Shown here piece after piece: positions 35,284 to 62,529 of a stretch of DNA of 64,000 nucleotides (position 1 is its first letter; the number at the start of each line of letters is the position of its first letter). The stretch is from a virus. The notes under the pieces are model-generated. The model saw nothing but the letters and a program-made list of their open reading frames with translations. It made no database searches and was not told the DNA's origin. The stretch lies in the IMG/VR virus record IMGVR_UViG_3300010396_000037. One strand, 5' to 3'. The position numbers were made by a program, and so were the translations under genes.

Positions 35284-35402
35284 ATTTGCGTTGTTGGTTG
35301 AAAAGTAGGTGGCGCGAAATTCGTACAGAGAAGGTCCAGCAGCCAATTGGGATAAGCTCTGGCAACGCAAATTATTGTAGAATGGTAGTAAAGGTGTTGT
35401 TT

Positions 35403-35770
35403 GGCGGCAGGTTGGACGCGGGTTCGATTCCCGCCCACTCCACCAAAAGCAAATTAGTCACGAAAGGGGAAGGTAAGATCACCGTATCGTAAGAGAAATC
35501 CTAGACCCGGTGACGCTAGTTTGTTTTTGATGGGGTGGACATGGCTTCGACAGTCTGGACTGAGGACAAGGCTCTACCCAAGCGTTGAATGTAGGCTTGT
35601 AAATCTGAACACTCAAACGTCAAATGCAAACGATAATGCATACGATCTAGCCCTAGCGGCCTGATCCCAAGAGTGGCTCCGTCTTGGTTCCTCAACGGAG
35701 CATTGAATTAAAGAACCCACAGGGTGATGCATTAAATCCTGCGGATGAGAGGAAAGACTGACGCCTCTGA
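35403..35770 (+). ncRNA. ssrA: Circularly permuted (two-piece) tmRNA; tag ANDNAYDLALAA
   Basis: Acceptor piece GACGCGGGTTCGATTCCCGCCCACTCCACCA ends at 35445. After the intervening segment, the coding piece starts GGGGTGGACATGGCTTCGAC at 35532. G3-U70 pair; tag ORF 35626-35664. Outer ends are approximate. Confidence 0.92.
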
Positions 35771-61731: not shown

Positions 61732-61943
61732 TGGTGAGCTTTGTAGGCTAAATATGCTGATGAACGCGGAGACTTAGCGGCTTGATTCTACTCGGGTGTG
61801 GCAGCATTGTAGTGCACTATGATGCAACGATTGATCATCGTGACTGTTCGTGGGTTTGACTCCCACCATCGGCTTCTACAAAGATAGCAGTTACATGGAG
61901 TGACTGAGGGAATAACACGAGGCGCAATTGCGCGCCTACACCA
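61732..61943 (+). ncRNA. Scaffolded tRNA-like RNA, copy A (giant variable arm, CTA in the anticodon loop)
   Basis: TGGTGAG...TAACACGAGGCG-CGCCTACACCA scaffold enclosing a cloverleaf at 61756-61873. Confidence 0.7.
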
Positions 61944-61959
61944 AAAGGAAAATAAATTT

Positions 61960-62033
61960 GCCCGGTTAGTTTAATAGTAAAATGCCTCTCTTACACGGAG
62001 GATTCGGCGGAGCGTAACCGTCACTGGGTACCA
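61960..62033 (+). tRNA. tRNA-Val(TAC)
   Basis: CCTCT-ct TAC ac-GGAGG; T-loop AGCGTAA; CCA. Confidence 0.85.
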
Positions 62034-62053
62034 ATTTTGTACATGGAGCATAT

Positions 62054-62149
62054 ATGATTACTACAGGTTGGGTCGCTAGAGCGATCATCAGTATGACTCC
62101 TGTTGTTTTAATTGGAATTTTGATTGTCTATGTTGTTTGTAATTTTTAG
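62054..62149 (+). CDS. 31-aa hydrophobic peptide
   Basis: GGAG RBS; MITTGWVARAIISMTPVVLIGILIVYVVCNF. Confidence 0.45.
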   Translation: MITTGWVARAIISMTPVVLIGILIVYVVCNF

Positions 62150-62326
62150 GTGAGTTCTTGAGGTAACAGAATTGACTGTGGGGGTGTAGCTCAACGTTAG
62201 AGCACTGAATGCAAGGAGTGTGGCGCGCGCGATCTCCTTTGGTTCAAGGATGGTGGTTTAACTCCGCCCATCCCCTGCTCAAGAAAACTTAACACGAGGC
62301 GTCAACACACGCCTACACCTAGAAAG
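62143..62326 (+). ncRNA. Scaffolded tRNA-like RNA, copy B (giant anticodon arm)
   Basis: TAGGTGAG...TAACACGAGGCG-CGCCTACACCTA scaffold enclosing a cloverleaf at 62180-62275. Confidence 0.7.
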
Positions 62327-62331
62327 TTTAT

Positions 62332-62443
62332 GCGGTTGTCGGGTAAGCTGGTATCCCTCTGCATCATTTGATGCAGGCTTTAATTCCAATAAACGGTCCG
62401 TGAGGGAATTGAAGTGGTGGTTCGAATCCATCTGACCGCGCCA
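62332..62443 (+). tRNA. Atypical tRNA (undetermined anticodon, ~40-nt variable arm, CCA)
   Basis: GCGGTTG/TGACCGC-GCCA; GGTGG-TTCGAAT-CCATC; CTGCA-tcatttga-TGCAG. Confidence 0.65.
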
Positions 62444-62447
62444 AATT

Positions 62448-62523
62448 GAATTGTTAGTTCAAAGGAAATCAAAGAACACTTCCGCGGAGGGAGGATGTGA
62501 GGTTCGACTCCTTGCACAATTCA
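62448..62523 (+). pseudogene. tRNA-like element with a shrunken anticodon loop, no CCA
   Basis: GAATTGT/ACAATTC; GTTC/GAAC D-stem; AGG-TTCGACT-CCT. Confidence 0.55.
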
Positions 62524-62529
62524 TAAAAT

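Follow-up and report, generated by a model that had tools for sequence, protein, structure and literature searches.

A tRNA-mimic RNA element with a conserved junction core in the tRNA island of a T4-like phage and in other phages and prophages

Two copies of a structured RNA element in a phage tRNA island

The window analysed here is the whole stretch of 64,000 nucleotides of IMG/VR virus record IMGVR_UViG_3300010396_000037, which is itself a 67-kb fragment with a completeness estimate of 38%. The contig comes from a T4-like phage. Among the window's genes are those for a gp23 capsid protein, which shares 65% identity with its counterpart in Stenotrophomonas phage DLP_6, for a class I ribonucleotide reductase and for an RNA ligase of Rnl1 type. 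A large tRNA/RNA island, in which ARAGORN identifies 16 tRNAs at 56.8–63.4 kb and Rfam adds more, contains two copies of the element considered in this study, namely copy A (61732–61943) and copy B (62148–62320), both on the plus strand. Judged from their sequences, the two copies are genes, or processed segments of the tRNA-island transcript, belonging to a widespread RNA family of phages and prophages.

The two copies have in common an outer helix (P1), an unpaired AG, an 8-bp helix (P2) placed round a tRNA-like shell (hereafter the cargo), the string UAACACGA, a hairpin with the stem GGCG/CGCC (P3) and a UA dinucleotide. P1, P2 and P3 are recovered in the minimum-free-energy (MFE) folds of both copies, which also share the identical strings UAACACGAGGCG and CGCCUACACC on the two sides of a variable loop; exact occurrences of the 12-mer and the 10-mer in the 64-kb window are confined to copies A and B. 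An earlier note on this DNA had described a two-copy scaffold with an outer helix, an AG, a compensatory second helix and identical strings flanking a variable loop, all of which are present, and had recognised that the cargos are tRNA-like, without CCA and distinct from each other, as the sequence check also found. The outer helix, given there as GGTG/CACC, does pair in both copies but comprises 5 bp rather than 4, and the scaffold, taken there as three-way, is indeed recurrent but is usually a four-way junction with a pseudoknot. Besides the additional hairpin of copy A (P2a) and the 2-bp pseudoknot, the leader hairpin of copy B and the cargo-free and permuted forms of the family had been missed.

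In copy A, the 5' strand of P1 (TGGTG, 61732–61736) pairs with CACCA (61939–61943) in the MFE fold, and is separated from P2 by the unpaired AG (61737–61738), which is invariant in 33 of the 33 aligned members. The 5' strand of P2 (CTTTGTAG, 8 nt, 61739–61746) pairs with CTACAAAG (61876–61883), while the dinucleotide GC that follows it (61747–61748) pairs with G61930–C61931 in the P3 loop to form the pseudoknot. The 3' strand of P2, beginning 2 nt past the acceptor 3' strand of the cargo, is followed by the linker AUAG and the hairpin P2a (61884–61906, the hairpin being 61888–61906), which is supported by the fold and by covariation and makes copy A a four-way junction. The conserved single strand AGGGAAU-AACACGA (61907–61920, of which TAACACGA is 61913–61920) then enters the P3 hairpin (GGCGC, a 6-nt loop and GCGCC; 61921–61936), and UA (61937–61938) leads to the 3' strand of P1. 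The cargo of copy A (61756–61873) is a tRNA-like shell composed of a 7-bp acceptor (61756–61762 with 61867–61873), a D-like arm, a T arm (GTGGG/CCCAC, 61850–61866) and large extra hairpins. It contains neither a 7-nt anticodon loop nor CCA, and is called as a tRNA neither by ARAGORN nor by the Rfam tRNA model. The 'loop containing CTA' reported earlier for this cargo exists, but it is a 6-nt loop on a weak, G-U-rich helix and not an anticodon loop.

In copy B, the 5-bp P1 (62148–62152 with 62316–62320; MFE fold) is followed by the unpaired AG (62153–62154), the 8-bp P2 (TTCTTGAG, 62155–62162, with CTCAAGAA, 62278–62285) and the pseudoknot dinucleotide GU (62163–62164), which pairs with A62307–C62308 in the P3 loop. 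A leader hairpin predicted by folding (ACAG, loop, CTGT; 62166–62179) abuts the acceptor stem of the cargo (62180–62276), a tRNA-like shell recovered by the fold and scoring 41.9 bits with the Rfam tRNA model. This cargo has a canonical acceptor, D arm and T arm, whereas a closed hairpin of about 40 nt takes the place of the anticodon arm and CCA is lacking; in a test for tRNAs that combines the RF00005 score with the presence of a 7-nt anticodon loop, it therefore fails on the loop despite its score. P2a is absent, and AACU-UAACACGA (62286–62297, of which TAACACGA is 62290–62297) leads directly to P3 (62298–62313), which is followed by UA and the 3' strand of P1.

Both copies were scored with R1, a covariance model for which the 3' halves of 35 family members were used, copy A being among them and copy B not. 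The scores are 59.6 bits (E 5e-14) for copy A and 42.1 bits (E 3e-9) for copy B. The features used for assignment to the family, namely the 3' half, a 5-bp P1, the AG, an 8-bp P2 and the 2-bp pseudoknot, were found in both copies, in copy B without P2a.

Covariation and the shared fold

Pairs were counted in a full-length alignment of 33 sequences, with column shuffles and partners slid sideways as controls. Paired cells account for 97.2% of the total, compared with 73.5% in column shuffles and 30–56% with slid partners, and double-change cells number 165 against 44.6 expected. The earlier note had named a lack of further covarying homologues as refuting its proposal; such homologues are in fact numerous. 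In an alignment-independent test, P1, AG and a P2 no shorter than 7 bp were correctly positioned in 30 of 38 cores, where 0.6 would be expected.

P1 consists of 5 bp, of which two G-C pairs are invariant and three covary, the outer pairs being AU, UA, GC or CG. P2 has 8 bp in nearly all members, with an invariant first pair (C-G) and last pair (G-C) enclosing six covarying ones. It is followed by a linker, (G)UAG, and by P2a, a small hairpin frequently capped by a GNRA tetraloop, in which all three counted pairs covary; owing to P2a, most members are four-way junctions like copy A. The single strand leading into P3 has the consensus A-N-N-A-A-N-U-A-A-C-A-C-G-A. P3 has the form GGCG-N, loop, N-CGCC, where the stem GGCG/CGCC is invariant and the fifth position alternates between U-A, C-G and A with G, and is followed by UA and the 3' strand of P1. 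No variation occurs in the string U-AACACGA in alignment A4, but the search pattern had itself fixed part of this string; likewise, the invariance of AACACGAGGC and GCCTA is partly imposed by the search patterns, and the elements of phage IME10 and of a Rhodococcus phage vary there.

A mutual-information scan revealed the 2-bp pseudoknot, which joins the two bases after the 5' strand of P2 to the final two in the loop of P3. The first pair (columns 16–368) is G-C in 30 sequences, G-U in 2 and A-U in 1, and the second (columns 17–367) is U-A in 19, C-G in 8, A-U in 1 and U-G in 1. Klebsiella phage RaK2 has a compensating A-U, the permuted member L110 has AG opposite CU, and the two copies in the window differ as well (GC opposite GC in copy A, GU opposite AC in copy B). 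As the pseudoknot requires P3 to lie beside P2 and to reach its far end, the fixed length of P2 may be explained by this contact, and the core is thus predicted to be a compact tertiary fold rather than a loose junction. For two members (L114 and L141) RNAalifold favours a shorter P2; the 8-bp form was retained, as it matches the pseudoknot spacing of the family.

Occurrence, cargo and genomic neighbours

Search patterns that fixed the P1 of the window itself (an exact and a 16-base version) were too narrow, their IMG/VR matches being RaK2 and otherwise chance or coding DNA, and the family surfaced once P1 was left free. In the P1-free viral scan, 33 of the 100 loci among the matches listed score 34–77 bits with R1, while the other 67 give no match, and the version in the window is a local variant of a much larger family. 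Members are about 90–260 nt long. They include a metagenome contig (L133) with two copies at the head of a tRNA array, cargo-free forms (L114 and L141 from the metagenome scan, as well as L363 and L410) and circularly permuted forms (L110 and L112), in which a 7-nt loop caps P1 and P2 stays open, with a tRNA-like gene directly upstream.

By BLAST, at least 100 records of cultured phages carry the element. Carriers comprise Kolesnikvirus and other Ounavirinae, RaK2-like Alcyoneusvirus, jumbo phages of Erwinia, Serratia, Yersinia, Pectobacterium and Pseudomonas, 54-kb Faunus-like phages, phages of about 145–150 kb infecting Klebsiella, Serratia and Citrobacter, and the P22-like phage IME10. R1 matches at the 20-bit level were obtained in one Acinetobacter phage and one Rhodococcus phage, where the core reads UAAAACGA or GAACGA. 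Among 5426 complete E. coli genomes, 119, including those of strains ATCC 11775 and NU14, have the IME10-type element in prophages, at 95–100% identity. In IME10 (L418, 1085–1245), it is located between Q and the holin gene, in the leader of the late operon and 3' of a terminator-like hairpin; its core is UAAAACGA and its cargo is not tRNA-like. The phiEa21-4-type query gave no match in E. coli genomes, which reflects a limit of sensitivity, as the IME10-type query finds 119. No bacterial chromosomal copy outside a prophage was seen, the GTDB genomes having been scanned with the narrow pattern only. The element carries no annotation in the carrier E. coli genomes at NCBI, and the GenBank phage records show either none or an overlapping 'hypothetical protein'. 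Matches in the bacterial contig and permuted-viral scans were discarded as chance or coding sequence, as were matches to the search strings in Prevotella (L100, L104, L111 and others) and Clostridia (L138, L156, L158 and others), which are conserved coding sequences varying at the third codon position.

The insert enclosed by P2 ranges from 12 to 183 nt. Typically a leader is followed by an acceptor of 7 bp, a D-like arm, highly variable central hairpins that replace the anticodon and variable arms, and a canonical T arm; neither a normal anticodon loop nor an encoded CCA occurs in any of the cargos. Between the window and its relative L116, the central arms differ through large insertions and deletions. 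The earlier note had asked whether the scaffold always encloses a tRNA-like domain; most members do, but the cargo-free and IME10-type ones do not. Two side observations concern the cargo. The second copy of L133, on the minus strand, has a cargo of about 79 nt with an apparently circularly permuted tRNA-like body, in which the T arm precedes the D-like arm and the acceptor is closed by a loop, an order of YrlA type within the scaffold. The cargo acceptors of L390 and L411 (phiEa21-4-type) and of L343 contain a G3:U70 pair, where most other members have G3-C70. G3:U70 is the alanine identity element and is used by tmRNA as well.

The way in which the cargo is joined to the core bears on one possible function, in which the core would be a passive maturation or stability module clamping together the leader and trailer of a CCA-less tRNA-like RNA. 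Such a clamp would block 3'-to-5' exonucleases, RNase Z/BN and CCA addition, and might position RNase P, so that an uncharged mimic would accumulate. The trailer does reach P2 within 0–3 nt of the acceptor 3' strand in both permutations, a leader of 16–18 nt with a small hairpin lies beside the acceptor in about half of the cargo-bearing members, and the tRNAs found downstream of many members (see below) would allow tRNA processing to set the ends of the element. A simple clamp, however, would have no need of a P3 stem that never varies, of a pseudoknot that covaries or of at least 20 invariant bases in the junction, and the cargo-free members and those in the IME10 late-operon leader have nothing to protect, which makes this explanation rather unlikely.

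Of 42 members, 18 have a canonical tRNA no more than 300 nt downstream, in about ten cases starting 5–18 nt past P1, and 11 have one no more than 300 nt upstream. In two RaK2-like jumbo-phage contigs (L348 and L397), ARAGORN identifies a tRNA with a CUA anticodon (amber-suppressor type) just upstream of the element. Open reading frames (ORFs) may also follow closely, beginning 12–40 nt downstream in RaK2 and several jumbo phages, and an ORF start is found 12–23 nt past P1 in at least 8 members. Clustering of the neighbouring genes revealed no protein family fixed beside the element; an Rnl-type OB-fold protein adjoins it in L374 and an HD_4 hydrolase in L372. A sigma-70-type promoter is present within 200 nt upstream in 5 of 37 members, compared with 2.9% of control windows, and some members have a terminator on their 3' side. 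The phiEa21-4 element, whose cargo is annotated as 'tRNA-OTHER', has its own consensus promoter (TTGACA-17-TAAATT) about 45 nt upstream and is the first gene of a tRNA array. A role as a put-like antitermination leader was considered and dropped, as some members end a transcription unit and the copies in the window are in the middle of an array.

The ORFs close to P1 and the position in the IME10 late-operon leader would suit a ligand-sensing, riboswitch-like aptamer, a three- or four-way junction with parallel arms that controls the gene downstream or what becomes of the tRNA-like domain, and the shape, a 'tuning-fork' with a conserved junction and two arms in distal contact, resembles the aptamers of the purine type. 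Nevertheless, this function is improbable, as the downstream genes are mutually unrelated or are tRNAs, no sign was seen of an alternative pairing that might act as expression platform, and a tRNA-like insert is foreign to a standard riboswitch.

In the window, no promoter-like site was found upstream of either copy. Between copies A and B lies a tRNA (61960–62030, plus strand) with the anticodon UAC (Val) in its anticodon loop, which scores 45.5 bits with the Rfam tRNA model; its T loop is non-canonical, and it is missed by ARAGORN. The order copy-tRNA-copy recurs on a soil contig (L116 and L127), the tRNA keeping its place in L116. A 31-codon ORF (62055–62149) encoding a hydrophobic peptide precedes copy B, and its TAG stop codon overlaps the first G of P1 of that copy. 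The stretch of about 118 nt around this ORF is absent from L116, where copy B begins 5 nt past the tRNA. Directly 3' of copy B (62332–62525) there are two more tRNA-shaped elements with intact acceptor and T arms and rebuilt central arms, neither of which contains the junction core (no R1 match). Elsewhere in the window, a permuted, two-piece tmRNA gene (35384–35664; RF04321, 106.5 bits) is predicted, with the tag peptide ANDNAYDLALAA according to ARAGORN. Use of a neighbouring 74-aa ORF as bait for relatives retrieved nothing, and BLAST of the whole region against phages gave tRNA-Leu as its sole match.

Relation to known RNAs and possible function

With Rfam 15, no match to the scaffold was obtained at E values up to 10 in the window, in its metagenome relatives (the cargo-free ones included) or in the minimal members, in agreement with the earlier note, which had not recognised a known family. 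In the literature, the core strings retrieved only unrelated primers, and keywords led to no description of the element either; the core motif thus appears to be undescribed. By its predicted structure, the element is a phage tRNA-mimic RNA joined to a non-tRNA module with a distinct core.

The closest parallel in design is YrlA, in which a conserved non-tRNA module is joined to a tRNA-like domain (Chen et al. 2014, PMC4201824). Both RNAs combine a tRNA-shaped, non-decoding domain with a conserved module, both have phage-encoded examples, and both are occasionally linked to RtcB. The tRNA-like domain of YrlA is permuted (V-T-AS-D) and its ends exit on the 'anticodon' side, whereas here the order is normal and the ends exit from the acceptor. 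The same design, together with the RtcB genes that adjoin the element at two loci, could suggest a divergent Y RNA of YrlA or YrlB type, whose core would bind Ro60/Rsr, as the earlier note had entertained. RtcB shares an operon with rsr and yrlA in Salmonella. Against this stand the silence of the YrlA (RF02553) and Y RNA (RF00019) models, which match none of the elements at E values up to 10, the absence of the GNCGAA(N)G motif near the 5' end (which reads GGUGAG-C... or NGAGAG-C... in the element), the normal order of the cargo, and the lack of a TROVE/Ro60 gene (PF05731) in seven carrier phage records (G000–G006), three of them complete. Carriers also include prophages of E. coli; E. coli K-12 is not known to have rsr, though the carrier strains may differ. 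A literal Ro60/Y-RNA identity is accordingly disfavoured and considered highly improbable.

Small RNAs of other kinds were also compared. The species 1 and 2 RNAs of T4 (rnaC and rnaD) are likewise small stable RNAs of a phage tRNA cluster, and rnaC has a canonical T arm, but the best R1 score in the T4 tRNA region is 8.7 bits and there is no junction core. Theta ribozymes, which are minimal HDV-like ribozymes located beside phage tRNAs (Kienbeck et al. 2024, PMC10879173), resemble the element as small conserved structured RNAs directly 3' of phage tRNA-type genes. The element lacks the nested double pseudoknot of the HDV fold (P1, P1.1, P2 and P3), being a plain junction with one 2-bp pseudoknot, has no match to an HDV-family model of Rfam and wraps the tRNA-like body from both sides. 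With the hammerhead it shares a three-way topology, junction strands in the order short, long and short, a distal loop contact between parallel arms and circular permutations, but UAACACGA, UA and AG stand in place of CUGANGA, GAA and H, so that no core position matches; most members also have a fourth helix, and no Rfam hammerhead model matches.

These likenesses raise the question of whether the core belongs to a new class of small RNAs with self-cleaving or other catalytic activity, cutting in or beside the junction or at the 3' end of the tRNA-like body, which would process tRNA-array precursors or yield ends (2',3'-cyclic phosphate and 5'-OH) that RtcB could rejoin. The layout would suit such an activity, with a long junction strand ending in GA before a G-C-closed hairpin, two parallel arms joined at a fixed 8 bp through a distal loop contact, a P2a frequently capped by GNRA, and either P1 or P2 able to be the open helix, as the permuted L110 and L112 indicate. 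The position directly 3' of tRNA-like bodies is that of theta ribozymes (PMC10879173). In addition, RtcB, which the earlier note had named as a possible co-occurring protein, is encoded about 100–280 nt from the element in L363 (4602–5816, minus strand, with a tRNA in between) and L400 (468–1811, plus strand); it is absent from four complete carrier genomes, which speaks against a ribozyme. Further arguments against a ribozyme are the lack of any sequence in common with hammerhead, twister, twister-sister, pistol, hatchet, hairpin or HDV ribozymes, the failure of all Rfam ribozyme models to match (cargo-free members included, E up to 10), and the invariant stem sequences of P1 and P3, which are unusual among small ribozymes. 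Self-processing is also not obviously needed where a member has its own promoter. A self-cleaving or other catalytic core is therefore regarded as unlikely, albeit a serious candidate. A broader version, in which the core represents a new catalytic or ligand-responsive class of RNA acting on the 3' ends of phage tRNA-shaped RNAs, is possible but doubtful. If this were true, a catalytic core that, for example, self-cleaves to RtcB-ligatable ends would be a counterpart of the theta ribozyme with a hammerhead-like topology and a different core.

The function tentatively preferred here is that of a stable trans-acting RNA, in which the rigid core docks a conserved factor and holds the tRNA mimic. 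The RNA would be freed from tRNA-array precursors through the normal processing of the neighbouring tRNAs, or be transcribed separately under a promoter of its own. A conserved factor of host or phage origin would dock on, or recognise, the core, which is rigid and invariant in sequence. P2, as a spacer of fixed length, would present to the tRNA-binding machinery a non-decoding tRNA mimic that is uncharged and has its 3' end sealed. This is the adaptor or decoy logic of YrlA, with a different handle and a different partner. Sequence-specific recognition is suggested by the invariant bases in P1 and P3, as opposed to the freely covarying P2 and P2a, and a trans-acting RNA is supported by those members that have their own promoter and those that have a terminator. 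The cargo keeps the tRNA elbow while losing the anticodon loop and a free 3' end, which supports its interpretation as a tRNA mimic. As no neighbouring gene is fixed and the carriers extend from phages of Enterobacteria to soil phages, Acinetobacter phages and, weakly, actinophages, the partner would have to be widely conserved. The RNA-repair genes found beside the element at some loci (RtcB in L363 and L400, the Rnl-type OB fold in L374) also count in favour of this function.

Several points weigh against this function. The core works without a tRNA mimic in the cargo-free members L363, L410 and L114, and the cargo of the IME10 type is not tRNA-like. At least 20 conserved unpaired bases, GNRA caps, a distal pseudoknot and permutation are equally typical of ribozymes and aptamers. 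The apparent invariance of the core (AACACGAGGC and GCCTA) was, as stated above, set in part by the search patterns, and many members lie 5–25 nt upstream of a tRNA or an ORF, a position compatible with a role in cis.

Five helices or contacts of the family covary and its junction hardly varies; it is present in hundreds of phages and is unannotated in genome records. Phages that can be cultivated as models are among its carriers (RaK2, phiEa21-4-like phages, jumbo phages of Serratia and Erwinia, and IME10), as are prophages in about 2% of complete E. coli genomes, so that function is directly testable in tractable systems. Owing to its small size, the minimal form without cargo is suited to ribozyme assays and to structure determination. 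The element thereby bears on the questions of why phages keep non-decoding tRNA look-alikes in their tRNA islands, and of which orphan structured RNAs they use against, or together with, the RNA machinery of their hosts.

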